DNA from: Somniosus microcephalus
Taxonomy: Eukaryota
DNA length: 64,000 nucleotides
NCBI GenBank assembly: GCA_052327205.1
Contig: CM126220.1
Coordinates: 30,628,001 to 30,692,000, forward strand
Direction of reading: 5' to 3'
Shown: in pieces, positions 2,890 to 51,984 of the stretch
Position numbering within the stretch: the stretch's first letter is position 1
Layout: every line of letters starts with the position of its first letter
The notes under the pieces: model-generated
What the model was told of the DNA's origin: nothing
The model's database searches: none
The model's input: only the letters and a program-made list of their open reading frames with translations
Made by a program: the position numbers and the translations under genes

Positions 2890-3112
2890 TGAGGTCCGTC
2901 GCATTGCTGATGCTGAATGTAAACACCAGCTGAGGAAGTCTCATTTGAGAAATCAAGATTCTCAACCTGGTGTATCGGGGATCCACTGTTCAATCTACGG
3001 ATGCACATTCAGAGCAAAAATAGGTCTCGTCAGTCACCAAAGAACTCACTGCAAAGAATGAGGCGACATTCTTGCTGTCTTCTTCGATATCAAAGAATGA
3101 ACAGCGACGACT
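2890..3112 (+). mobile_element. RTE-clade LINE 3' fragment
   Basis: Encodes C..(Y)GCTFRAKIGLVSHQRTH, the RTE ORF C-terminal motif, followed by a short repeat tail. Confidence 0.7.
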
Positions 3113-3139
3113 ATTTCTGCAGCGGGGTTCAGTTAATTC

Positions 3140-3248
3140 AGTGCTATTTGTGGGAGCTTGCTGTGCGCAAATTGTCTGTTGTGTTTCCCTACATTACAAC
3201 AGTGACTACACTTCAAAAAGTATTTCATTGGTTGTAAAGCACTTTAGG
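3140..3248 (+). mobile_element. Deu-SINE tail, 5' half (interrupted by CR1; resumes at 8588)
   Basis: Matches 2720-2822; the continuation atgtcctgaggttgtgaaa..gctatagaaatgcaagtctttc is at 8588-8634. Confidence 0.8.
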
Positions 3249-3695
3249 AGATTCACCAGGATGTTACCTGGGCTGGAGTGCTTCAGCTATGAGGAGAGAC
3301 TGGACAGGCTGGGGTTGTTTTCCTTGGAGCAGAGAAGGCTGAGGGGGGACCTGATAGAGGTGTACAAAATTATGAGGGGCATAGATAGGATAGATAGAAA
3401 TGAACTCTTCCCCTTAGTAGAGGGGTCAATAACCAGGGGGCATAGTTTCAAGTTAAGGGGCAGGAGGTTTCGAGGGGATTTGAGGATGGTTGGAATCTGG
3501 AACTCACTGCCTGAACGGGTGGTAGAGGCAGGAACCCTCACAACATTCAAGAAGCATTTAGATGAGCACTTGAAACACCATAGCATACAAGGCTACGGAC
3601 CAAGTGCTGGAAAATGGGATTAGAATAGATAGGGCTTGATGGCCGGCACAGACACGATGGGCCAAAGGGCCTCTTTCTGTGCTGTATAACTCTAT
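3248..3695 (+). mobile_element. CR1 LINE 3' end (5'-truncated); tail split by Harbinger
   Basis: RRFTRMLPGLECFSYEERLDRLGLFSLEQRRLRGDLIEVYKI...WNSLP; the tail ataactctat continues as tatgactctatg at 8576-8587. Confidence 0.92.
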
Positions 3696-4432
3696 GGGGG
3701 AGAAATTCGGTATCGCCCCATTTGGGGCGCAATTATCGGCCGGGCGCAAAGATTAGCGCCTGGCGCTAATCATCGCCTCCAACTGCAAACTTGGCTTTTC
3801 TCGCCCCTGGAGGTGATTGGAGCGCTAAATCAGGCGCTACACAACTCTCTTAAGGCGCTAAGGCCAAGGAGCGAGGCGCTACCTCAGAGAGCAGGTGCAG
3901 GTGCTGTCAGTTAGCGATTGAACACAGACACACTGGCGCCGGTCAGTTCTTAAAGGGGAGGGTTGATCTTGCTCTGCAGCTACACCCTACTCACTGGAGC
4001 CTTGAATCTCGGCCTGGGCAGACCTGTGGCTAAATCTAGCAGCCAGACACTATAGAAAGGGCCAGGGAGCGAGCACAGCGCTTCTGCGAGCGGGCTTTGG
4101 AGGCTCTGGTTCGCGGGGTGGAGCGCAGAAGATCCATTCTGTACCCAAAGAGTGGCAGGAGGCCTTTGCCACGCGAGTACAGAAGAGTGTGGAGGGAGGT
4201 GGCTCAAAGCGTTTCCTCAAGCAGCATGGTGCCTAGGACCCCTGTGCAATGTAGGAAAAAGTTCAACGACCTCACTCAGGTCGTCAGGGTGAGTGCCTTT
4301 TTTTTTCAAAACCTCTTCATCCCTCCATCTCAACCTCACTTTATGGCCAGAGGGTCTTGAAAGCCCCAATGCCCAACACTCATCCAACACCTATGGCCCT
4401 TTCATCAAACACACACGCACATCCCACACTTT

Positions 4433-5188
4433 GCATACAGTAAGGGCTATTCAACTATGGGAGGCACATCAGGCAAGACCATGGCTGCATACAGTAAGGG
4501 CTATTCAACTATGGGAGGCATATCAGGCAAGACCATGGCTGCATACAGTAAGGGCTATTCAGCTATGGGAGGCATATCAGGCAAGACCCTGGCTGCATAC
4601 AGTAAGAGCTATTCAACTATGGGAGACATATCAGGCAAGACCTTGGCTGCATACAGTAAGGGCTATTCAACTATGGGAGGCATATCAGGCAAGACCATGG
4701 CTGCATACAGTAAGGGCTATTCAGCTATGGGAGGCATATCAGGCAAGACCCTGGCTGCATACAGTAATAGCTATTCAACTATGGGAGACATATCAGGCAA
4801 GACCTTGGCTGCATACAGTAAGGGCTATTCAACTATGGGAGGCATATCAGGCAAGACCATGGCTGCATACAGTAAGGGCTATTCAGCTATGGGAGGCATA
4901 TCAGGCAAGACCCTGGCTGCATACAGTAAGAGCTATTCAACTATGGGAGACATATCAGGCAAGACCTTGGCTGCATACAGTAAGGGCTATTCAACTATGG
5001 GAGGCATATCAGGCAAGACCATGGCTGCATACAGTAAGGGCTATTCAGCTATGGGAGGCATATCAGGCAAGACCCTGGCTGCATACAGTAATAGCTATTC
5101 AACTATGGGAGACATATCAGGCAAGACCTTGGCTGCATACAGTAAGGGCTATTCAACTATGGGAGGCATATCAGGCAAGACCATAGCT
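4433..5188 (+). repeat. 54-bp minisatellite, 14 copies, in intron 1 of the Myb gene
   Basis: Unit GCATACAGTAAGGGCTATTCAACTATGGGAGGCATATCAGGCAAGACCATGGCT; 756 bp = 14 x 54. Confidence 0.97.
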
Positions 5189-5996
5189 GTATATTTACTC
5201 AGACGCCGCCCTTTTTCTTGCAGGCCAAGCTGTCTCATAATAGGAGACAGCAGCAACGCACCAGTGGAGGGCGGCCTCAGCTTCAACCCCTCAGCGATCT
5301 TGAGGAGCGCATCCACAGGATTGTGGCAAGCCGGGTGATTGGTCCCGTCACCACTGGAGATGCTGACCCCGTTCTGGACAGCAATGGTAAGGTCAACAGC
5401 AGCCTTTGACGCTTTCAATCCAAATCACTAAATCGCTGCACTCATGCCTCCCTTGCTGCCACCCTGTCCTCACGCTAAAGCCACTCTTGTACCTCCCTGC
5501 TTTCAGATGGTGATTCACCAAGTGAGGAGCCGGGCCCTCAAGCTGCCAGTGAGAGTGAAGCTGAAGGCGAGGAGGAAGAGGAAGCCAGACCATCAGCGCC
5601 ACCCTCAACCGAGGCAGCCCATGCCCATACTGGCGACATGCCTACCCTGGAGGGGAGCAGGGGGGAATGGTCTGATGAGGGTGAAGCTCCAGGACCCAGC
5701 GGGCGGCAGCAACGCGATGGGGATAGGGAAGCTCGGGGGCCTTCTCCCCGGAGGGAGAGTATGGCCTCGAGTCCTGCTGCACTGGACGCAGACGAGGAGC
5801 GGGTCCTCGCTGAAATGAGCGCCCAGGCGGAGCAAAGGCACACTGAGCTCATGGCTGCAGTGGCAAGGTTGCCCGAATCCATTGAATCACTGGCAAGGAG
5901 TGTGGAGCACTTCGCTGTAGCACAGGCGGTTGCCACGCAAATGCTAAGTGCTGCAATGCAGTCAGTGGCTGGTCTCATGCAAACGCAGATTGAGGC

Positions 5997-6222
5997 TGTT
6001 ATAAATCTCATCATCAAGAAACTACTCATGAAATAATGCTGGATGGCCAGCTGGTGGCGCCGTCCAAGGAGTATAAATACTCGGGCGTGGGCCCAGCTTT
6101 CCAGGAACATTTTGTAAGACAAGGAGCTAGTGAAGTACAACTAGACTTCCATGTTCTGAAACAAGTTGATTAAAGCCTTGCTTTATACTCAAACCAAGTG
6201 CGTAGTGAGTTTTATTACATCA
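5997..6222 (+). mobile_element. Solo LTR (226 bp)
   Basis: TG...CA ends (TGTTATAAA...TTTATTACATCA), 5-bp TSD GAGGC (5992-5996 and 6223-6227), internal TATAAATA (~6072) and ATTAAA (~6169). Confidence 0.85.
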
Positions 6223-6933
6223 GAGGCCACGCGAGCACTGACTGCTGCCACCCTCGCTGGATCGGGCACATTTCCCCAGGGTTCTCACCGCACCACAGCA
6301 GGCCAGCAATCTGTGCTCCATCAGATTGCTCTGGATGCTGAAGTGCTGCCCCGTGGGAGTGCCAGTGTGTCGGTCGAGCAGGGAGTTGCTGTCCTCTCTC
6401 AAGATGACAGCATTGCTGCTGCCACCACTGGCACTTCTCCACTGCAGTTGCCACCACCTGTAGGGCAGACTGCTGCCGCCCATGCAGAGTTGGTGCAGTC
6501 AGCAGCCGGGCCCTCCAGGCCCAGAGCTGGTCCAGGCTGTCCCTCAAGGGCATCTGCAGTCTCAGTTTCTGACACTCAGCAGCCTTCCCGGAAGCAGATC
6601 ACCCTCGAAGGGCAAAAAGTAGGAGGTGTGGCAAAATGTTTTTCATTGTTTTATTGAAGGCTGAAGTTCGTGGTCAAATTTTTGTAACTGTTTTGGACAT
6701 TGTCTCCAGGTTGTGAGAGTCAGTTATGTGAATGACTGCTTTTATTTGTGTTTCTTTCTATTACTTTGTCATGCGGAAATGAGACACACAGAGTTTGTGA
6801 AATAAAGAAGTGTCTGTATTCAAAATGTACATGTTTGGTCTTTGCACTCATTGTTGCCTTAACCGGCTTAGGGGTTGCGGGTTGGTTTCATTCAGGTTGT
6901 TTGAATGGCAGAAGCCATTCCCTCAGAGGGGGC

Positions 6934-8065
6934 CTAGAAGCGACTTGCTATGAGCCTTTGACGGATGGCCCTTCCACTTTGTGCCTCCCTCCCGCCTTGG
7001 TGCTGCTGATGATCATCCTCCTCATCTTCCTCCTCCTCCTCCTCCTCCTCCTCTAGTAGTGCTCCAATGTCTGGTGGCATTGGCTGGGTCCTGAGGATTG
7101 CCAGGTTATGCAGCATGTAGCACACAACAATGAAGTGGGAGACTCGTGAGTACTGCAGGCTCCTCCAGAATGGTCCAGACAGCGGAACCGTTGCTTGAGC
7201 ACACCGATTGTGTGCTCAACGATGTTCCTGGTAGCTTGATGGCTCTCGTTGTATCGCAGCTCAGCAGGGGTGCTGGGCGTACGGAGTGGTGTCATCAGCC
7301 AGGTGCACAGAGAATATCCCTTGTCTCCGAGAAGCCAACCTCCTGGGTGATGCGGTGCCTGGAAAAGGTCTGCCACAGAAGTCTGGTGCAGGATGAAGGC
7401 ACCGTGGCTGCTGCCTGGAAAGTGGGCATTGACAGCGAGTATCAGCTGCCTGTGGTCACAGACCAACTGCACGTTTAAGGAATGGAAGCCCTTTCGGTTG
7501 CGGAAATCCTCGGCGCCCGCAAAGCCACATGCATGCAGTCAATGGCGCCCTGCACCATGGGGAAGCCCGCTATCCTAGTAAAGCCCGTTGCGCATTCTTG
7601 CTGCTTGTCCGGGGTCATGGGGAAAGAGATGTACTCTCGTCTCCTTTTAAAGAGGGCATTTGTTACCTGACAGATACAGCAATGCACCGCAAACTGGGAG
7701 ATATTGGCGATGTCCCCAGTAGCTGATTGAAATGAGCCAGTGGCATAAAAGTTGAGAGCCACTGTTATCTTCACTGCCACTGACAGAGACGTCCTGCTCC
7801 TCAGTTGAGGCTGCAGATCTGGCTGAAGCAGGTGGCAGAGCTCCATGACCAACTCCTTGCTGAATCGCAGCCTTCGCAAACAGTGCTCCTCAGACATATT
7901 AATGTAGGAGAACTGTTGGCGAAAAACCCTGGGAGGGTAAGGTCTCCTGTACCGAGGCCTGTTGGCCCTCCTCCGTCTGGCCATGATTGCCACTCTCTCT
8001 CTGCATCTCTGTGCCCTCCGAATGTGATGAAGAAGGATGACGTTCCCATCCATTGCAGCCCCCAT
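6934..8065 (-). pseudogene. Harbinger DDE transposase (HARBI1-like family), frameshifted
   Basis: [71 protein letters not shown], acidic tail; frameshifts near 7512 and ~7150. Confidence 0.93.
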
Positions 8066-8587
8066 AATATCTGGGCAATCAAAGTTATGAAGGTCAAAAA
8101 GCAAAGTACCTGCAAAGTTATGGTCAGACGCCAAAACTACCTCAGATAGCGTTGACTCAATGAAGAAGTCTCTCTTTCTCTCTCTGCAAATCTCTCTCTC
8201 TCTCTCAGAACGAGTGGTGCAAAAATGGCTACCACACAAAAGCCAGGAAGAGGCCCCCTTTAAATAGCGCCACCCCAGCCCCACAGCGACTGGGATGCAT
8301 TCCAGTCAACCTGTCGTTGGTAGCGCCAGGCAGAAAGGAGGGGGGCGCCACTGAATTTCCGGTCTGGGGCGCCCCAAGGGCGTTGCACTCTCGAATGACG
8401 TCAAGATCTGCATGTGCAGGAGATCGGGCGGTGTTGTTTAGCGCCGCCGCAAAATGTCTGGTCAATTTCGCGAGAGGCGCAGATATCGCCGCGCCCGGGC
8501 GCTAGTTGGTTTGCACCCCACTTAGCGCGGTCTTAAGGCACTAACGGGTGGCGCTACCAACTGAATTTTTCCCCCTATGACTCTATG

Positions 8588-15498: not shown

Positions 15499-16190
15499 CT
15501 ACTTTTAGCGCCCCGGAAAAATTAGCGCCCCCATGGCTGAAATTCAGTGGTAGCGCCCCAAGAGGGAAGCGGAGTGCTACTGGAAGCGCTTTGCCTCCCT
15601 CTTGGGGCACTGCGAGGGAATATCATGGCGCTGCAGCACGTCGCGCCACGGTATTGCAGGCCTTCTGCCCCTTCTTAAAGGGGAGGGGCCTTGCCCAGCT
15701 GGGCCACCAGGGATTGGAGTGCTAGCAAAAGAGAACGGCACTCAAGAGAAGTGCTGGGCTCATGGAGCGCAGCCGGCACTTCACGGGGGGGGGGGGGGGA
15801 GGGGGGCGGGTCAGGAGGCTGGGGACGGCAGCGGAGGCAGGTGCTGGCAGGCAGCCAGCAACAAAAATGGCCGTCCGGCATCTCGCCTTTAAATAGCGTC
15901 ACCCCAGCCGCAGGTATGCCCCCCTGACCCCGTCGGACATAGCGTCTGGCGGTAAGTCAGGGGGCGCTACCGAAGATCGCGGCCGGGGCACGAGCGGGGT
16001 GCTGCGCATGGCGATGATGTCATCGCCGGCGGCGCAGCGCCGTGGGGTGCTAACGGTTAGCGCCGCCGCTAACCTCCCGCTAAGTTTCGCGGGAGGCTTT
16101 GGCGGCGCTGCGCCCGGGCGCTAGTTGCTTTGCACCCCATTAGCACCATCTCAGGGCACTAATGGGAGGTGCAAAGCAACCGAATTTCAA
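15499..16190. mobile_element. Non-autonomous Harbinger derivative (MITE-like)
   Basis: 15884-16190 aligns with 8258-8570 (cctttaaatagcg.caccccagcc; cgcccgggcgctagttg.tttgcacccca); ttcttaaaggggaggg shared with ~3947; TAGCGCC motifs. Confidence 0.8.
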
Positions 16191-40330: not shown

Positions 40331-42028
40331 AAAAAGGCCTGGGTTATTGGGTCAATTTGTTTTTCATCTTCCTAAAAATTGTTACATACTAAAACATCTT
40401 GATTTCTACAGGCATCTCCCCAGCCAAACTGTAGAACAACAGTGTCCAGTGTCACATAAAGTTAACGTTGAATTCTCTGTTTGAGGGCAGCCTCGGGAAC
40501 ATAGCGCTCAGAGCTTCTCAAACACTGCAAATCTGTCATGTTACTGTTAATATAAATGGCTACTAATATGCAGATCATCTAATAAATTGATGTTTGTATT
40601 GCACTATCTACTCTTAAGTATGTGTCTCACAAAGTGTGTAAAACATTATAGAAGATCAGGTAGATGCTTAACAGGGGCTGCACTGTGCTGCAAAATGCTT
40701 TATATCACCTCGAAGTGTACACCTCTGATAAAGCAGATAAAGATTGTGGGAAATTGACACTGAGCATGAGTACAGCATATCAGCAGTTACCTGCACAACG
40801 AGATATAAGAGCCAGCACACAGTGTCAAAGAGGCAGTTCCATTTTTTATGATAGTTTCCCATGGGAAAACTGCCTCTCAATAACACATTACAGCTTAATT
40901 TCAGGACTCTATAAATCTTGGGGCCGTATTGTGTGCCTCTGTGCTATAAGATAAAGAATACTGTACCATTGTGCTGATAAGGAACTCAGTAGCACTGGGC
41001 AGACACTACAACAGAAATAATGTTACATTTCTTAATATGGGACAACTTTGGAAAATTCTTGCACTTCAGGACGATTGAGCGAGCCAACATGAGCTGGGAG
41101 AGGGCTTTAATATCCCGGCATTAGCTGGGAAGAGGGTTTAACACACTGGCATCAACTGGGAGAGGATCCAACACACTGGCATGAGCTGGGAATGTGTCAA
41201 ACAATCCGGCATGAGCTGGAAATGGGTCAAACATCCCGGCATGAGCTGGGAATGTCTCAAACAATCCGGCATGAGCTGGGAATTAGTCAGACATTCCAGC
41301 ATTAGTTGGAAATAAGGCAAACACCTCAGCATGAGCTGGGAGTATGGCAAACAGCCCGGCATGAGCTGGGAATGAGTCAAACAATCCGGCATGAGCTGGG
41401 AATGAGTCAAAAAATCAGGCATAAGCTAGGAATGAGGGAAACACTCCAGCTTGAGCTGGGAATGAGTAAAACAGTCCGGTCCTCTGCTGGGAATGAGTCA
41501 GAGACCCCAGCATCAACTGGGAATCAGTAAAACACGTCAACATGAGCTGGGAATGGGTTGAATGACCCGGGATGAGCTGGGAATGAGTCAAACAATCTGG
41601 CATCAGCTGGGAATGCGTCAAACACCCCAGCATGAGCTGGGAATGAATCAAAAAATCCGACATGAGCTGGGAATGGGTGAAATAAACCGGCATCAGCTGG
41701 CAATGGGTCACACACCCCGGTATCAGCTGGGAATGGGTCAAATAACGCGGCATGAGCTGGGAATGGGTCGAACGACCAGGGATGAGCTGGAAATGAGTCA
41801 GACATCCCAGCATGAGCTGGGATTGAGTCAGACACCCCAGCATGTGCTGGGAATGAGTCAAACAACCCAGCATGAACTGGGAATTAGTCAAAAAATCTGG
41901 CATGAGCTGGGAATGAGTAAAACAGTCCGGTCCTCTGCTGGGAATGAGTCAGAGACCCCAGCATGAGCTGGGAATGAGTCAAATATTCCGGTTGTTGCTG
42001 GGAATGAAACAAACAATCCGGCATGAGC

Positions 42029-42111
42029 ATCAGCCATGATCTCAGTAAATGGCGGCGCAGGCTCGAGGGGCCGAATGGCCTACTCCTGCTCCTATCTTCT
42101 ATGTTTCTATG
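42029..42111 (+). mobile_element. CR1/HE1-type 3' tail inserted in the satellite
   Basis: atcagccatgatc..gcaggctcgaggggccgaatggcctactcctgctcctatcttctatgtttctatg. Confidence 0.9.
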
Positions 42112-44629
42112 AAATGGGTCAAACAATCCGGCATGAGCTGGAAATGAGTCAAACAATCCGGCAAGAGCTGGGAAATGAGTCAAATAACCCGGCATCAGCT
42201 GGGAATGTGTCAAATAACCCAGCATGAGCTGGGAATCAGTCAAATAACCCGGTATCAGCTGGGAATGAGTCAAATAACCCGGTATCAGTTGGGAATGCGT
42301 CAAACACCCTGGCATGAGCTGGGAATGAGTAAAAAAATCCGGCATGAGCTGGGAATGAGTTAAACAGCCCGGCATGAGCTGGGAATCAGTCAGCTATCCC
42401 GGCTGTTGCTGGCAATGAGTCAAACAATCTGGCATGAGCTGGGAATGGGTGAAAAACCCCAGCATGAGCTGGGAATGAGTCAAATATCCTGGCATGAGCT
42501 GGGAATGAGTCGGACACCCCAGCATTTGCTGGGAATCGGTCAAATATCCCAGCATGAGGTGGGAATGGGTTAACCAATCTGGCATGAGCTGGGAATGAAT
42601 CAAACAATCCGGCATGAGCTGGGAATGGGTCAAATAATCCGGCATTCACTGGGAATGTGTCAAATAACCCGGCATCAGCTGGGAATGTGGCAAAAACACC
42701 AGCATGAGCTGGGAATGAGTCAAAAAACCTGGCATGAGCTGGGAATGAGTCGGACACCCCAGCATTTGCTGGGATTCGGTCAAATATCCCAGCATGAGGT
42801 GGGAATGGGTTAACTAATCCGGCATGAGCTGGGAATGAGTCAAACAACCCAGCATGAGCTGGGAATGGGTCAAATACCCCAGCATGAGCTGGGAATGGGT
42901 CAAACAATGCGGCATGAGCTGGGAATGAGTTAAACACCCCCACATGTGCTGGAAATGGGTCAAACAATCCGGCATGAGCTGGGAATGATAGAAAAACCCG
43001 GCATGAGCTGGGAATGAGTTGGACAGCCCAGCATGAGTCAAACAATCCAGCGTGAACTGGGAACGAGAAAAAATCCTGGCATGAACTGGGAATGAGTCAA
43101 AAAATCTGGCATGAGCTGGGAATGAGTTAAACGATCTGGCATGAGCTGGGAATGAGTCAAACAATCTGGCATGAGTTGGGAATGGGTCAAATACCCCAGC
43201 ATAGGCTGGGAATGCATCAAACAATCCAGCATGAGCTAGGAATGATAGAAAAACCCAGCATGAGCTGGGAATGAGTCAAACAATCCGGCATGAGCTGGGA
43301 ATGAGTTAAACACCCCCACATGTGCTGGAAACGGGTCAAACAATCCGGCATGAGCTGGGAACGATAGAAAAACCCGGCATGAGCTGGGAATGAGTTGGAC
43401 AGCCTAGCATATGCTGGGAATGGGTCAAATACCCCAGCATGAGGTGGGAATGGGTTAAGCAATCCGGCATGAGCTGGGAGGTATGAGCTGGGAATGAGTC
43501 AAACAACACGGCATGAGCTGGGAATGAGTCAAACAATCCGGCATGAGGTGGGAATGGGTTAAGCAATCCGGCATGAGCTGGGAATGAGTTAAACAACATG
43601 GCATGAGCTGGGAATGAGAAAAAAACCCAGCATCAGCTGGGAATGAGTCAAACACTCCGGTGATCTGCTGAGAATGCATGAGCTGGGAATTGGTCAAACA
43701 CTCCGGTACAAGCTGGGAATGAGTGAAACAATCCAGTTCTCTGCTGAGAATGCATCATACACCCCGGCATGAGCTGGGAATGATTCAAATATCCCGGCAT
43801 GAGCTGGAAAAGGGTCAAACATGATCTCGGAGAGGATCAAAAAATCCGGTATGAACTGGGAATGAGTCAAAAACCTGGACATGAGCTGGGAATGAGTTAA
43901 AAACCTGAACATGAGCTGGGAATGGGTCAAATACAGTGGCATGAGCCGGGAATGAGTCAAACAATTCTGCATGAGCTGGGAATGGATCAAATACACCGGC
44001 GTGAGCTGGGAATGAATCAAACAGTTTGGCATGAGCTGGGAATAAGTCAAACAATCCGGCATGAGCCGAGAATGGGTCAAACAATCTGCATGAGCTGGGA
44101 ATGAGCCAAACAATCTGCATGAGCTGGGAATGAGTGAAACATCCCGGAAAGAGCTGGGAATGAGTGAAACATCCCGGAAAGAGCTGGGAATGAGTGAAAC
44201 ATCCCGGAAAGAGCTGGGAATGAGTGAAACATCCCGGAAAGAGCTGGGAATGAGTGAAACAATCCGGTTCTCTGCTGAGAATGGGTCATAGACCCGAGCA
44301 TGTGCTGGGAATGAGTTAAACACCCCGACATGAGCTGGGAATGTGTCACACACCCCGGCATGAGCTGGGAATGAGAAAAAAAGCCAGCATCAGCTGGGAA
44401 TGAGTCAAACAATTCGGCATGAGCTGGGAATGAGTTAAACACTCCTGCATGAGCTGGGAATTGGTCAAACACTCCGGTACAAGCTCGGAATGGGTCGAAC
44501 GACCCGGGATGAGCTGGGAATGAGTCAAACAATCTGGCAGGAGCTGGAAATGGGTCAAACACATTGGCATGAGCTGGGAATGGGTCAAACACATCGGCAT
44601 GAGCTGGGAATGGGTCAAACAATCCGGCA

Positions 44630-44787
44630 TTAGCGCCTTAAGAAAGGTGTGTAGCGTCTGATTTAGTGCTCCAATCACCTCCAGGGGCGATAGAAGCCAA
44701 GTTTGCAGTCGGAGGCGATAATTAACATTAGGTGCTGAACTTTGCACTCGGCTGATAATTGCGCCCCAAATGGGGCAATACCGAATT
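44630..44787 (-). mobile_element. Harbinger left-end fragment in the satellite
   Basis: Diverged reverse complement of ~3704-3861. Confidence 0.9.
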
Positions 44788-47700
44788 ACAATCTCAAAAA
44801 ATCTTGCATGAGCTGGGACTGAGTAAAACAATCTGGTCCCATGCTGGGAATGAGTCAGAGGCCCCAGCATGAGCTGGGAATCAGTCAAATAACCCGGCAT
44901 GAGCTGGGAATGTGTCGAACAACCCGGGATGAGCTGGGAATAAGTCAAACAATCCTACATAAGCTGCGAATGAGTCAAATAACCCGGCATCAGCTGGGAA
45001 TGGGTCAAACAATCCGGCTTGAGCTGGGAATGCATCAAACACATCGTCATGAGCTGGGAATGGGTCAAACAATCCGGCTTGAGCTGGGAATGGGTCAAAC
45101 AATCCGCCATGTGCTGGGAATTAATCAAGGAATCCAGACTGAGCTGGGAATGAGTCAAATAACCCGGCATCAGCTGGGAATGGGTCAAATAACCCGGGAT
45201 GACTGGGAATGGGTCACACACCCTGGCATTAGCTGGGAATGGGTCAAGTAACCCGGCATCAGCTGGGAATGCGTCAAACACCCAGCATGAGCTGGGAATG
45301 AGTCAAAAAATCAGGCACGAGCTGGGAATGAGTCAAAAAATCAGACATGAGCTGGGAATGGGTTAAGCACCTCGGCATGAGCTGGGACTTGGTCAAACAC
45401 CTCGACATGAACTTGGAATTAATCAAACAATCCGGCTTGAGCTGGGAATGGGACAAAACCCAGGCATGTGGTGGGAATGGGTAGAATGACCTGGGATGAG
45501 CTGGGAGTGAGTCAAACAATATGGCATGAGCTGGGAATGGGTCAAACACCCCGGCATGAGCTGGGAATGAGTCAAATAATCTGGCATGTGCCGGGAATGG
45601 GTCAATAATCATGGCATGAGCTGGGAATGGGTCAAACATCCTGCATTGTGCTGGGAATGGGTTGAACGACCTGGGATGAGCTGGGAATGGATCAAACAAT
45701 GTGGTCTGAGCTGGGAATGAGTCAAACACCCCGGGATGAGCTGGGAATGATTCAAATAACTCGGCATCAGCTGGGATTGAGAAAACACCCCGGCATGAGC
45801 TGGGAATGCGTCAAAAACTCTGGCATGAGCTGGGAATGAGTCAAAAAATCTGGCATGAGCCGGGACTGAGTGAAACAATCCTGCTGGGAATGAGTCAGAG
45901 AGTCCAGCATGAGCTGGGAATCGGTCAAATATCGCAGTATGTGCTGGGATTGGGTCAAGCACCTGACATGAAAACGTAGAGGGTCAAAAAATCCAGCATG
46001 CGCTGGGAATGAGTCAAAAACCTGGACATGAGCTGGGAATGGGTCAAATAACTCGACATCAGCTGGGAATGGAAAAACACTCAGGCATGAGCTGGGAAAG
46101 GGTCAAATAACCCGGCACATGCTGGGAATGGGTCGAACGACCTGGGATGAGCTGGGAATGAATCAAACAATCCGGCATGAGCTGGGAATGAGTCAATTAA
46201 CCCGGCATAAGCTGGGAATGGGTCAAATAACCCGGGATGAGCTGAGAATGGGTCACACACCCCAGCATCAGCTGAGAATGGGTCGAACGACCCGGGATGA
46301 GCTGGAAATATGTCCAACAAATCAGCATGAGCTGGGAAAGGGTCGAATGACCCGGGATGAGCTGGGAATGAGTCAAATACCCAGCATGAGCTGGGAATGA
46401 GTCAAAAAATCCGGCATTAGCTGGGAATGAATTAAACACACTGGCATAAGCTGGGAATGGGTCAAACACTCCAACATGAGCAGGGAATGAATCAAACAAT
46501 CTGGCATGAGGTGGGAATGAGTTAAACAATCCGGGATGAGCTGGGAATGAGTCAAATACCCAGCATGAGCTGGGAATGGGTCAAAACCCCGGCATGTGGT
46601 GGGAATGGGTCAAACACCCCAGCATGAGCCGGGAAAGGGTCGAACGACCCGGGATGAGCTGGGAATGAGTCAAACAATGTGGCATGAACTGGGAATGGGT
46701 CAAACACCCGGGCATGAGCTGGGAAAGGGTCAACAACCCGGCATGAGCTGGGAATAAGGCAAACAGCCCAGCATGAGCTGGGAATGAGTCAAATAGCCCA
46801 GGATGTGCTGGGAATGAGTCAAACACGCCAGCATGAGCTGGGATTGAATCAAACAATCCGGCATGAGCTTGGAATGACTCAAATAATCCGGGATGAACTG
46901 GGAATGGGTCAAACACCCTGGCATGAGCTGGGAATGAGAAAAAACCCCGGCATGAACTGGGAATGAGTCAAAAAATCTGGCATGAGCCGGGACTGAGTGA
47001 AACAATCTGGTCCTCTGCTGGGAATGAGTCAGAGAGCCCAGCATGAGCTGGGAATCAGTCAAATATCCCAGTATGTCCTGGGAATGGGTCAAACACCTGA
47101 CATGACCTGGAAAAGAGTCAAACACCCCGGCATGATCTCGGAGAGGGTCAAAAAAACCGGCATACGCTGGGTATGAGTCAAAAACCTGGACATGATCTGG
47201 GAATGGGTCAAACACGCCAGCACGAGCTGGGAATGAGTCAAACAATCCGCATGAGCTGGGAATGGGTCAAACAATCCAGTCCTCTGCTGGGAATGAGTCA
47301 GAGAGTCCAGCATGAGCTGGGAATCAGTCAAACAATCTGGCATGAGATGGGAATAGGACAATAATCTCGGCATGAGGTGGGAATGGGTTAAACAATCCGC
47401 CATGAGCTGGGAATGGGTCAAACATCCCAGCATGAGCGGGGAATGGGTCAAAAACCCCAGCATGAGCTGGGAATGAGTCATACAATCCGGCATGAGCTGG
47501 GAATGGGTTAAATAATCCGGCATGAGCTGGGAATGGGTCAAACGACCCGGGATGAGCTGGGAATATGTCAAACAATCCGGCATGAGCTGGGAATGAGTTG
47601 AATGACCTGGGATGAACTGGGAATATGTCAAACATGACCGAACGACCCGGGATGAGCTGGAAATGAGTCAAACACCGCAGCATCAGCTGGGAAATAGAAA

Positions 47701-50700
47701 ACAGCCCAGCATGAGCTGGGAAAGGTTCAAAAGCCTGACATGAGCTGGGAATGCGTCAAACGACCTGGGATGAGCTGGGAATGAGTCAAACAATCCGGCA
47801 CGAGCTGGGAATAAGGCAAACACCCCAGCATGAGCTGGGAATATGTCAAACAATCCGGCATGAGCTGGGAATGGATCGAACAACCCGGGATGAGCTGGGA
47901 ATGAGTCATACAATCTGGCATGAGCTGGAAATGGGTCAAACAATTCGGCATGAGCTGGGAATGAATCAAATAATCCGGCATGAGCTGGGAATGAATCAAA
48001 CAATCTGGCATGAGCTGGGAATGAATCCAACAATCCGGAATAAGCTGGGAATGAATCAAACAATCTGGCATGAGCTGGGAATGAATCAAACAATCCGGCA
48101 TGAGCTGGGAATGTGTCAAATAACTCGGCATCAGCTGGGAATGAGCGATCACCCAGGCATGAGCTGGGAAAGGGTCAACAACCCGGCATCAGCTGGGAAT
48201 GGGTCGAACGACCCGAGATGAGCTGGGAATGAGTCAAACAATCTGGTATGAGATGGAAATGAGTCAGACGTTCCAGCATGAGCTAAGAATAAGGCAAATA
48301 CCCAAGCCTGAGCTGGGAATAGGTTGAACGACACGGGATGAGCTGGGAATGAGACAAATAACCCGGCATCAGCTGGAAATGTGTCACTCACTCCGGCATC
48401 AGCTTGGAATTGGTCAAATAACTCGGCATGAGCTGGGAATGAGAAAAAACCCCAGCATGAGCTGGGAATGAGTCAAAAACCATGACATGAGGTGGGAATG
48501 GGTTAAACAATCTGGCGTGAGCTGGGAATGAGTCAAACACCCCGGCATGAGCTGGAAATGGGTCGAACAACCTGGGATGAGCTGGAAATGGGTCAAACAA
48601 TCCGGCATGAGCTGGGAATGAATGAAACAATTTGGCATGAGCTGGGAATGAGTCAAATAACCCGGTCTGAGTTGGGAAAGGGTCAAAAACCCGGCACGAG
48701 CTGGGAATGAATCAAACAATCTGGCATGAGCTGGGAATGAGTCAAATAACCCGGTCTGAGCTGGGAAAGGGTCAAAAACCCGGCACGAGCTGGGAATGAA
48801 TCAAACAATCTGGCAGGAGCTGGGATTGAGATATATAACCCGGCATGAGCTGGGAATGAGTCAGACATTCCAGCATGAGCTGGGAATATGGCAAACAGCC
48901 CGGCATGAGCTGGGAATGTGTCAAACAATCCGGCATGAGCTGGGAATGAGTGAAACAATCTGGTCCTCTGCTGGGAATAAGTCAGAGACCCCAGCACGAG
49001 CTGGGAATCAGTCAAATATCCTGGCATGAGCTGGGAATGAGTCGGACATCCCAGCATGTGCTGGGAATGAGTCAAATACCCCGGCATGAGGTGGGAATGG
49101 GATAAACAATCCGGCATGAGCTGGGAATGGGTCAATTAATCTAGCATGAGCTGGGAATGGGTCGAACAAACCAGGATGAGCTGGGAATGATACAAATAAC
49201 CCGGCATCAGCTGGGAATGGGGCACACACCCTGGCATCAGCTGGGAATCGGTCAAATAACCCGGCATCAGTTGGGAATGTGTCAAACACCCAGGCATGAC
49301 CTGGGAATGAGTCAAAAAATCCGGCATGAGCTGGGAATGAGTTAACCACCCCGGCATGAGCTGGGAATGGGTCAAAAAATCCAGCATGAGCTGGGAATGA
49401 ATCAAACACCCCAGCATGAGCTGGAAATGAGTCAAACAATCCGGCATGAGCTGGGAATGTGTCACATATCCCGGCATCAGCTGGGAATGGGTCAAACAAT
49501 CCGGCATGAGCTGGGAATGAGAAAAAACCCTGGCATCAGCTGGGAATGAGTCGGACACACCAGCATGTGCTGGGAATGGGTCAAATACCCCGGCATGAGG
49601 TGGGAATTGTTTAAGCAATCCGGGGTGAGCTGGGATTGATTCAAACAATCCAGCATGAGCTGGTAATGAGACAAATAACCCGGCATGAGCTGGGAATGGG
49701 GCACACACCCCGGCATCAGTTGGGAATGCGTCAAACACCCCGGCATGAGCTGGGAATAAGACAAAAAATCCGGCATGTGCTGGGAATGAGTTAAACACCC
49801 CGGCATGAGCTGGGAATGAGTAAAAAAACCAATGCATGAGCTGGGAATGGGTCAAACAATCCAGCATGAGCTGGGAATGAGTGAAACAATCTGGTCCTCT
49901 GCTGGGAATGAGTCAGAGACCTCAGCATGAGCTGGGAATCAGTAAAATATCCTGGCCTGAGCTGAGAATGAGTCGGACACCCCAGCATGTGCTGGGATTG
50001 GGTCAAATACCCAGGCATGAGGTGGGAATGGGTTAACCAATCCGGCATGAGCTGGGAATGAGTTAAACAATCCGGCATGAGCTGTGAATGAGTTTAACCC
50101 ATTCCCAGACCATGCTGGGGTGTTTAACAATCCGGCATGAGCTGGGAATGACGAAAACCCCCAGCATAAGCTGGGAATAAGGCAAACACCCCAGCATGAA
50201 CTGGGAATGAGACAAATAACCTGGCATCAGTTGGGAATGGGTCAAAAACCAAGGCATGAGCTGCGAATGAGTCAAATAACCCGGCATGAGGTGGGAATGA
50301 GAAAAAACCCCAGCATGAGCTGGGAATAAGGAAAACACCCCAGCATGAGCTGGGAATGTCAAACAATCCGGCATGAGCTGGGAATGGGTCGAACGAATCG
50401 GGATGAGCTGGGAATGAGTCAAATAAACCGGCATGAGCTGGGAATGGGGTACACACCCTGGCATCAGCTAGGAATGGGTCAAATAACCCAGCATCTGTTG
50501 GGAATGCGTCAAACACCCCAGCATGAGCTGGGAATGAGTCAAAAAATCTGGCATGAGCTGGGAATGAGTCAAAAAATCCAGCATGAGCTGGGAATGAGTG
50601 AAACATCCTGACATGAGCTGGGAATGAGTCAAACAATCTGGTCCTCTGCTGGGAATGAGTCAGAGACCCCAGCATGAGCTGGGAATCAGTCAAATATCCC

Positions 50701-51984
50701 GGCTCTTGCTGGGAATGAGTCAACCAATCCGGCATGAGGTGGGAATGGGTTAAACAATCCGGCAGGAGCTGGGAATGAGTCAAACAATCTGGCATGTGCT
50801 GGGAATGAGTCAAACAATCCGGCATGACCTGGGAATGGGTCAAACAGCCCGGGAGTAGCTGGGAATGAGTCAAACAATCCGGCATGAGCTGGGAATGGAC
50901 GAAACACCTCGGCATGAGTTGAGAATGGGTCAAACACCCTGGCATAATCTGGGAATGGTTCAAACACCCTGGCATAATCTGGGAACGAGTCAAACAATCC
51001 GGCATGAGCTGGGAATGGATGAAACACCTCGGCATGAGTTGAGAATGGGTCAAACACCCTGGCATAATCTGGGAATGGTTCAAACACCCTGGCATAATCT
51101 GGGAATGAGTCAAACAATCTGGCATGAGCTGGGAATGGGTCAAAAACCCCAGCATGAGCTGGGAGTGGGTCCAACATGCCAACATGATTTGGGATTGGGT
51201 CAAACAACCCGGCATGAGCTGGGAATCAGTGAGGCACCCCGGCATAATCTGGAAATGAGTCAAACAATCCGGGAATAGCTGGGAATTGGTCAAATACCCA
51301 GGCACGAGCTGGGAATGGGTCAAACAATCCAGCATGAGCTGGGAATGGGTCAAACACCCCGGCATCAGCTGGGAATGAGTCAAATAATTCAGCATGAGCT
51401 GTGAGTGGGTCAAACACCTGATATGAATCCTTAGTTTGTCAAACATCTTGATATGAGCTGAGGTTGAATTGAGCATGCTGGCATGAGCTGGACTTTAGTC
51501 AAACCCCTTGGCCTAGTTGGGAGTAAATCAAACATCATAACTTGATCTTAGATTGAGCCAAATATGCAGGCATGAGCTGGGAGTTAGTCAAATACCTGGC
51601 ATTAACTGGGAGGGGATTAAACAATTTCAGCATGAACTGGGAGTGAATCCAACATCTGAGTATTGAAAGGCAAGTTTTAAATATTTTGCATTGTACGGCA
51701 ATAGTTCAGTTACAATGCTCATATCAGAGTGCAATTATAGCTATTACAGCTTATAAAAAAATAAAAGTTGGCTGCAAAATCTCAAATAATCAAGTAAAAC
51801 TCACAACAGGCTATACAGCAAATACCTTACATGCACATGACATCATAGCAACCTATCACCTTCATCTATATCCGTAACAAAAAAATCTATTAAAACAGAG
51901 AATAATGGATACCTGAGGTGATCATTGAAGGGGGAATATGAACCATTATATTATATATATATACAGCAAGAATGAAGCTCAACC

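Follow-up and report, generated by a model that had tools for sequence, protein, structure and literature searches.

Organization of the element and its two genes

Positions 3696..8575 of the window, which is the whole 64,000-nucleotide stretch of Somniosus microcephalus DNA that was analyzed, hold a full-length copy of a Harbinger-superfamily (Nuwa-like) DNA transposon with a family consensus of ~4.19 kb. The copy is bounded by 16-bp terminal inverted repeats (TIRs) that match each other at 14/16 positions (left TIR with a GGGGG start, 3696..3711, plus strand; right TIR, 8560..8575, minus strand). These are flanked by the target-site duplication TAT (3693..3695 and 8576..8578), which is recognized from the sequence and from the duplications at other copies. 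Both ends, 3696 and 8575, are also present at other family copies. The subterminal regions harbor clusters of a GGCGCTA motif, with five motifs on the left (3754..3881) and five on the right (8265..8556), where the consensus has seven. The consensus ends contain 12 of these motifs vs none in the internal 3.6 kb, and the motifs likely serve as binding sites of the Myb protein. The element was inserted into the 3′ end of a LINE (3024..3692, plus strand), recognized from its sequence, which gives no Pfam match and is presumably CR1-like. An 8-bp tail repeat of the LINE forms the insertion site and picks up again at 8579; this tail site is shared with the insertions L059, L108, and L126.

The transposase pseudogene (6934..8065, minus strand; consensus 380 aa) matches PF13359 with an E-value of 2.2e-28. 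The catalytic residues D176, D252, and E288 are kept in both the consensus and the copy, and the GAID, GDKGY, and IVEHTIG motifs are all found. A putative TATA-like motif lies upstream (8259..8266, minus strand) and is identical in 47/48 other copies. The conserved candidate poly(A) signal of the gene is located at 6650..6655 (minus strand, 39/49 copies). The TTTATT at 6741 that had been proposed for this role is a private mutation, as 38/48 other copies read TTTTTT there, whereas the AATAAA proposed for the second gene (6801..6806, plus strand) is kept in 41/49 copies, or 40/48 without this one. A sequence search of the PDB with the transposase gave no solved structure at E-values up to 1.

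The second gene encodes a Myb/SANT protein on the plus strand. Its model is predicted from the consensus ORF and the splice dinucleotides and comprises exon 1 (4052..4288, PF13873, E 5.8e-11), intron 1 (4289..5223), exon 2 (5224..5386), intron 2 (5387..5506), and exon 3 (5507..6622). Both predicted introns are of the GT-AG type, and the four dinucleotides are canonical in 47/49, 48/48, 46/48, and 49/49 copies. Among eight junction choices compared, only 5224/5386/5507 yields the long consensus ORF of 451 aa. Read-through of intron 2 meets stops, and the match to an elasmobranch protein (P0008) runs ungapped over the predicted intron 1 junction. In two RNA runs, no spliced reads at the predicted junctions were seen among the 15 joints listed of 62. 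When longer homologs were sought with the exon 1 protein, not one of the 127 candidates reached an E-value of 1e-6, which is weak evidence. Intron 1 is filled by a 54-bp minisatellite of 14 units (4432-5193) that is expanded in this copy and was absent from the original prediction.

Target-site choice and relation to known elements

The locus is a real two-gene element of an already known kind, the PIF/Harbinger superfamily, and the predicted class, boundaries, and gene model are upheld. It combines the features of the superfamily in its broad sense (PHIS): a DDE_Tnp_4 domain with its DDE triad, a Myb/SANT gene inside the TIRs, and TIRs with a 3-bp target-site duplication. Perfect 3-bp duplications flank 36/49 two-ended copies and 7/13 further copies, and the predicted ends do recur. 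Other lengths were rejected (2 bp, 9/49; 4 bp, 0/49; 5 bp, 1/49). The duplicated triplet is degenerate. The TWA of the narrow-sense PIF/Harbinger group (Han 2015) occurs at 8/42 unique sites and the CWG of the NuwaI group (Han 2015) at 3/42, neither being the rule here. TAT/ATA was considered as the typical duplication of the family and discarded, since 15/35 sites in the first sample and 0/7 in the second are not a robust pattern.

The target flanks resemble those of zebrafish Harbinger3_DR (AAACAC...GTCTTT): 7.23/12 positions are matched on average over 35 sites, vs a background of 3.42 (SD 0.26, maximum 4.26 in 2000 draws); seven further sites match at 6.71/12. A C is preferred before the duplication (48/84 symmetrised ends), and the preference reaches positions 4-6 on either side. 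The target logo was computed without L096, which has duplicate flanks. The palindromic preference would account for repeated insertion at the same position within other repeats, the LINE tail among them. The members of the pair L057/L104 share a site in opposite orientation, as do those of L059/L126.

Harbinger3_DR, listed as NuwaI-2_DRer in PMC4482050 Table S5, was compared through its published features, as given in parts of PMC3016246, PMC9710019, and PMC9179366. It resembles the shark family in length (4204 bp vs about 4190 here), in the pairing of DDE_Tnp_4 with Myb_DNA-bind_5, in its short TIR and 3-bp duplication, and in its target flanks. Its HDx and GD blocks are likewise separated by 23 residues, counted by eye from Fig. 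S3 of PMC4482050, and the Nuwa likeness of the transposase as a whole is a comparison of motif blocks by eye. The two differ in the triplet (degenerate in the shark family, with CWG as rare as given above), the TIR (12 bp there vs 16 bp), the Myb protein (221 aa vs 451 aa), the transposase (343 aa vs 380 aa), and the subterminal motif (9 bp vs a 7-mer). From the NuwaI group, the shark family has the GGG-starting TIR, a length close to the ~4.4 kb of that group, and the domain pair (Han 2015). With the NuwaII group (PMC4482050 Table S7), it has in common the two genes, GG-starting TIRs, and the C before the duplication, and NuwaII_TRub/SENKUSHA1 with C-NNN-G is a precedent for a free center. 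The C-TNA-G target of that group (Han 2015), in contrast, is not the rule here (TNA 7/35, C and G together 13/35), and the preference extends farther outward.

It is conceivable, though we consider it rather doubtful, that these copies represent a shark lineage of Harbinger3_DR-like transposases that kept the 6+6-bp palindromic flanks and largely lost the central CWG requirement, with duplications outside all PHIS groups defined by target-site duplication. If so, the consensus pair would offer a naturally occurring variant in specificity with which Harbinger target choice could be mapped, and a candidate vertebrate vector with a sequence bias.

The closest proteins found are elasmobranch entries named “putative nuclease HARBI1” (P0001, P0008, and others), which are automatic gene models. 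The best match is 72% over 80% of a natural copy’s transposase and 69% to the consensus, a near-identical protein being absent among the 120 listed; the Myb part of P0008 is 47% identical over residues 5-113. Harbinger in sharks is already published at the superfamily level, where Tourist/Harbinger elements are the commonest DNA transposons of a reef shark (PMC12498223). Harbinger was not found in the elephant shark, and other cartilaginous fishes were suggested for study, according to a part of PMC9179366. The word “harbinger” does not appear in the main text of bioRxiv 10.1101/2025.06.08.657570.

Copy number and decay of the family

The family has at least 2,000 copies, as exact 22-mer counts gave 2,676 (sister families included) and 2,088, with controls at 0. 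The sequencing data compared were a single run (X7) and two RNA runs for organism label C and a single run (X1) for label A. With the organism labels C, D, E, and F, shares of 0.32-0.56 were noted, a hint that the family is spread beyond one species. From these copies, 62 full-length ones were examined: a first set of 49, in which the 48 other copies were ranked by their similarity to this one, and 13 from one contig. Such sampling could overlook a subfamily that is young and small. Loci without one end inside the retrieved stretch made up 25/73 of the first sample and 7/20 of the second.

Sequence change in the copies looks neutral. The private non-CpG divergence has a median of 1.45% (range 0.98-3.83, 46 copies), and the present copy lies at 1.39%, about the family median. 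Among singleton changes, omega is 0.86 (p 0.2) for the transposase and 1.10 (p 0.39) for Myb, and stop codons are close to the neutral expectation (12 vs 15.2 and 20 vs 18.1). A transposase dN/dS of 0.6 in an uncorrected test was gone after correction for the substitution spectrum and restriction to singletons. Changes that several copies have in common show constraint in Myb residues 1-100 (omega 0.16, p 0.0017, 13 changes). The selection tests were run without L096, L093, and L066, and the corrected singleton test also without L058. The tree of 57 copies is star-like, with a median terminal branch of 0.025 vs 0.0012 for internal branches. No near-identical pairs were found among the 62 copies except two pairs with common flanks, and the closest pair of the second sample is 4.98% apart. 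The CpGs, noted earlier as retained in large number, are in fact decaying: 142/183 are kept in this copy and 77% across copies, vs about 2% non-CpG change.

Private change of ~1.5%, its neutrality, and the star-like tree make recent activity, as originally predicted, unlikely. With a rate of 7e-10 per generation and a ten-fold interval, both from another shark species (PMC10587355), the age of the family is estimated at about 2e7 generations (1e7-1e8 over that interval), and transposition likely ceased millions of generations ago. The strongest alternative, which we nevertheless regard as improbable, is that the family is still weakly active and that rare copies with open ORFs (such as L113), or copies that complement each other, would supply transposase and Myb in trans to move full-length copies or MITEs. 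Many MITEs do have the same ends. The transposase is open in 9 and Myb in 4 of the first 49 copies, and approximately full-length ORFs occur in 3 and 2 of the further 13; an open Myb of 452 aa in L043 at first scoring was not upheld by stricter tests. Both ORFs are open together in 1/49 and 0/13, among these copies only in L113, in which the DDE triad is likewise complete and no splice site is lost. However, L113 has 1.9% private non-CpG change, including substitutions that adjoin catalytic motifs. Family-like RNA reads do fall on L113 (8,990 and 15,418 in the two runs), but they cover introns and both strands, and only 44 and 78 of them, respectively, are at least 99% like it.

Lesions of the copy and origin of the locus

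The reading that the copy is nearly intact and could be restored from its own sequence has very little left in its favor. Its ends, splice sites, and DDE triad are kept, and its private divergence is ordinary for the family. The lesions listed originally are real but incomplete. The start codon of Myb is ATA, vs ATG in 44/48 other copies, and exon 3 is interrupted by a 226-bp solo LTR (5997..6222, TG...CA) with the 5-bp duplication GAGGC. This LTR has no counterpart in the other aligned copies and belongs to an abundant repeat (96-98% for the 40 of 3100 candidates that were scored), with a 5-bp duplication at 10/12 loci. The two transposase frameshifts noted before stem from a 13-bp deletion after 7514, in the catalytic core, and a 1-bp deletion near 7158. 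A third one had been missed: a 71-bp deletion after 6589 removes Myb residues 418-441 and puts the basic C-terminus out of frame. Further lesions that had escaped notice are a 39-bp deletion after 5393 in intron 2, a 6-bp deletion near 7145 in the transposase, and residues that deviate from the consensus (18 in the transposase, 24 in Myb), some of them subfamily alleles. These include T178M, C323Y, and, within the HD motif, D226G. The conserved aspartate of that column is present in 81/120 relatives listed, similar to the catalytic columns (98/120, 89/120, and 77/120). The missing 13 bp and 71 bp and dozens of substitutions can be read from sister copies only, so the proposed rebuilding from a single copy fails. 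The multi-copy consensus, by contrast, has both ORFs open at 380 and 451 aa. As an active autonomous element, the copy is contradicted by its broken ORFs and by the lack of near-identical dispersed copies among the 62. The idea that the locus is a HARBI1/NAIF1-like gene pair domesticated for a host function, suggested by the names of the database relatives and by known co-domestication of such pairs (part of PMC9710019), is refuted for this copy by its broken genes, intact TIRs and duplications, and thousands of neutrally changing relatives, and is given practically no credence.

The copy is thus very probably a broken full-length member of a multi-thousand-copy, two-gene Harbinger-superfamily family that stopped transposing long ago. 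In the mechanism envisaged, the spliced Myb/SANT protein would bind the repeated subterminal GGCGCTA motifs and bring the DDE transposase into the nucleus; both steps are modeled on zebrafish Harbinger3_DR as described in parts of PMC9710019 and PMC9179366. The transposase would then cut at the 16-bp TIRs and integrate the element into a palindrome like ARACWC-NWN-GWGTYT, duplicating 3 bp of the target. After insertion, the solo LTR, three frameshifts, loss of the start codon, growth of the minisatellite, and neutral point changes would have accumulated, and a candidate working version could be deduced from many copies only.

The individual copy at 3696-8575 contributes nothing past its family. 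What is documented is a large two-gene Harbinger family in a cartilaginous fish, a result of modest importance, and what may be reused is the consensus, in which both ORFs are open, together with a candidate binding motif for Myb and a palindrome that is shared with Harbinger3_DR and has a loose center.

Structure of the element and its genes

The element spans 3696–8575 and is bracketed by TAT triplets, and sequence comparison finds its 16-bp terminal inverted repeats (TIRs) to be alike at 14 positions; the ends, imperfect TIRs, and TAT duplication of the original prediction are hereby confirmed. Pfam places Myb_DNA-bind_5 on the forward strand (E 5.8e-11) and DDE_Tnp_4 on the reverse strand (E 2.2e-28), and the transposase and Myb genes are convergent. 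The Myb splice junctions proposed earlier are also supported, being the sole long-ORF combination among eight tried. Their dinucleotides are canonical in 47/49, 48/48, 46/48, and 49/49 copies, and reading through either predicted intron meets a stop. Junction 1 is covered by an ungapped alignment (residues 5–113, 47%) to P0008, a shark gene model made by automatic annotation.

Intron 1 harbors a 54-bp minisatellite (4432–5193, 14.1 units). The 14 units of the window copy compare with 0–9 marker matches in 48 other copies (mostly 2–4), so length changes inside the element. The minisatellite also yields repetitive 297- and 325-aa reading frames, which are probably incidental.

The left flank, for which Pfam returned no match, resembles the C terminus of ORF2 in a CR1-type LINE; the LINE's 8-bp tail repeat is split by the element. 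Elsewhere in the window lie a 163-bp piece of the family's left end (44625–44787, 89% alike), a diverged stretch resembling its right end (15886–16187, 68%), and a 10-kb tandem array of about 310 copies of a 30-bp unit (41115–51416).

Family size, consensus, and relatives

The transposase-side search gave 13,053 first-look candidates, 40 of which were scored, at 90–94% (self match aside), and the left-end search gave 4,455. Exact 22-mers from the transposase and from Myb exon 2 occur 2,676 and 2,088 times, respectively, with no occurrence of the controls; the former count takes in sister families such as those at loci L124 and L126 (81–88% alike). These two are full-length, with the same TIRs and transposases 87–89% identical to the consensus. 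A TIR-plus-motif pattern had 30,420 matches, a tally that takes in both ends, overlapping matches, sister families, and MITEs. Of 12 loci fetched from this list, 8 hold elements with internal deletions, about 0.7–1.3 kb long; L116–L123 are such MITEs, which have TIRs and subterminal regions in common with the family (78–93% alike) and lack both genes. Both ends were present in 48/73 loci fetched around the best matches and in 13/20 of a further sample from contig C1.

The consensus from copies, suggested originally as a check, has two open genes: its 4,187 bp (29 copies) encode a 380-aa transposase and a three-exon, 451-aa Myb protein. The consensus ends contain 12 copies of the 7-mer GGCGCTA, and the interior has none. 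The transposase's best-scoring protein relatives are elasmobranch, which makes the 6.4-Gb genome probably that of a shark or ray. Diagnostic alleles in a 46-copy alignment suggest about three subfamilies with numerous mosaics, a possible sign of recombination or gene conversion within the family. On contig C12, L084, L086, L090, and L093 have a left flank in common, which suggests that a segment was duplicated locally. A different ORF (L050, 5108–5488, reverse strand), Myb/SANT-like by eye, lies some 500 bp beyond a family copy and is probably part of another Harbinger family. The literature search found no title or abstract start describing the family, which does not show it to be uncatalogued.

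Target choice and proposed mechanism

At 42 unique sites (84 symmetrised ends), position −4 is A in 68/84, position −5 a purine in 76/84, and position −1 C in 48/84. The duplicated triplet is loose (TAT/ATA 15/42, TWA 8/42, CWG 3/42), its middle base being A or T in 39/42. Agreement with the Harbinger3_DR flanks (PMC3016246) is 7.23/12 over 35 sites, versus a background of 3.42 that is not A+T-matched. Among 64 sites, the LINE-tail site was reused independently by the window copy, L059, L108, and L126 (reversed), and that of a second repeat by L057, L124, and L104 (reversed); L038 and L052 form a third pair at one reused repeat site.

The family falls within the PIF/Harbinger superfamily in its broad sense (PHIS). 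Its duplication differs from that of every narrow group (TWA, CWG, C|TNA|G) in PMC4482050, but C|NNN|G is given there for one family, a precedent for a loose triplet center. For the zebrafish element Harbinger3_DR (NuwaI-2_DRer), PMC9710019 and PMC9179366 describe a Myb protein that recognizes subterminal motifs, interacts with the transposase, and carries it to the nucleus. By analogy, the family may work alike: its Myb protein would bind the subterminal motifs, bind the transposase, and take it into the nucleus, and the transposase would cut and paste the element.

Decay and age of the family

The window copy is broken. Its Myb start codon is ATA (ATG in the consensus), exon 3 is interrupted by a 226-bp solo LTR that has a 5-bp duplication, intron 2 has a 39-bp deletion, and a 71-bp deletion after 6589 removes Myb residues 418–441 and puts the basic tail out of frame. 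The transposase has 13-, 6-, and 1-bp deletions. Residue differences from the consensus number 18 in the transposase and 24 in Myb, and glycine replaces D226 of the HD motif (this column is D in 81/120 relatives versus 98, 89, and 77 for the DDE triad columns). A single copy does not reveal the bases it has lost, so the claim that the transposon can be rebuilt from it fails. The minus-strand poly(A) signal predicted at 6741 is private to the window copy, the conserved one lying at 6650. The LTR (5997–6222, TG...CA) belongs to a family of short solo LTRs, for which a first look gave 3,100 candidates; each of the 12 loci inspected (L070–L081) looked solo, 10/12 with 5-bp duplications.

Median divergence from the consensus is 2.9% overall and 2.0% at non-CpG positions, with 77% CpG survival (49 copies). 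After subfamily-polymorphic columns were dropped, private non-CpG divergence had a median of 1.45% and a minimum of 0.98% (46 copies). A rate of 7e-10 per generation from another shark species (interval 1.4–14.1e-10; PMC10587355) gives an age of about 1e7–1e8 generations. This estimate is rough, yet the age is not a recent one, and the "recently active" proposal is not supported. A 57-copy tree has a star-like shape and contains one subfamily of 7 that is more distant; the sole close pairs, L092/L096 and L086/L093, are duplications, because flanks are shared within each.

Both ORFs are open in only 1/62 copies, L113 (301–4604; G000:C2:147560993-147565296), which retains the DDE triad and canonical splice sites and has 1.9% private non-CpG change. 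RNA runs X13 and X14 placed 8,990 and 15,418 reads on this copy, mostly 88–95% alike, covering both strands, introns, and element ends; none of the 15 listed joints, from a total of 62, is a predicted splice. Such coverage is consistent with read-through of numerous host transcripts.

Changes confined to one copy (singletons) are neutral in both genes, while those shared between copies are constrained in the Myb domain, the expected outcome of selection during transposition and subsequent decay. The window element is a real, correctly classified, dead copy of an old and abundant family.
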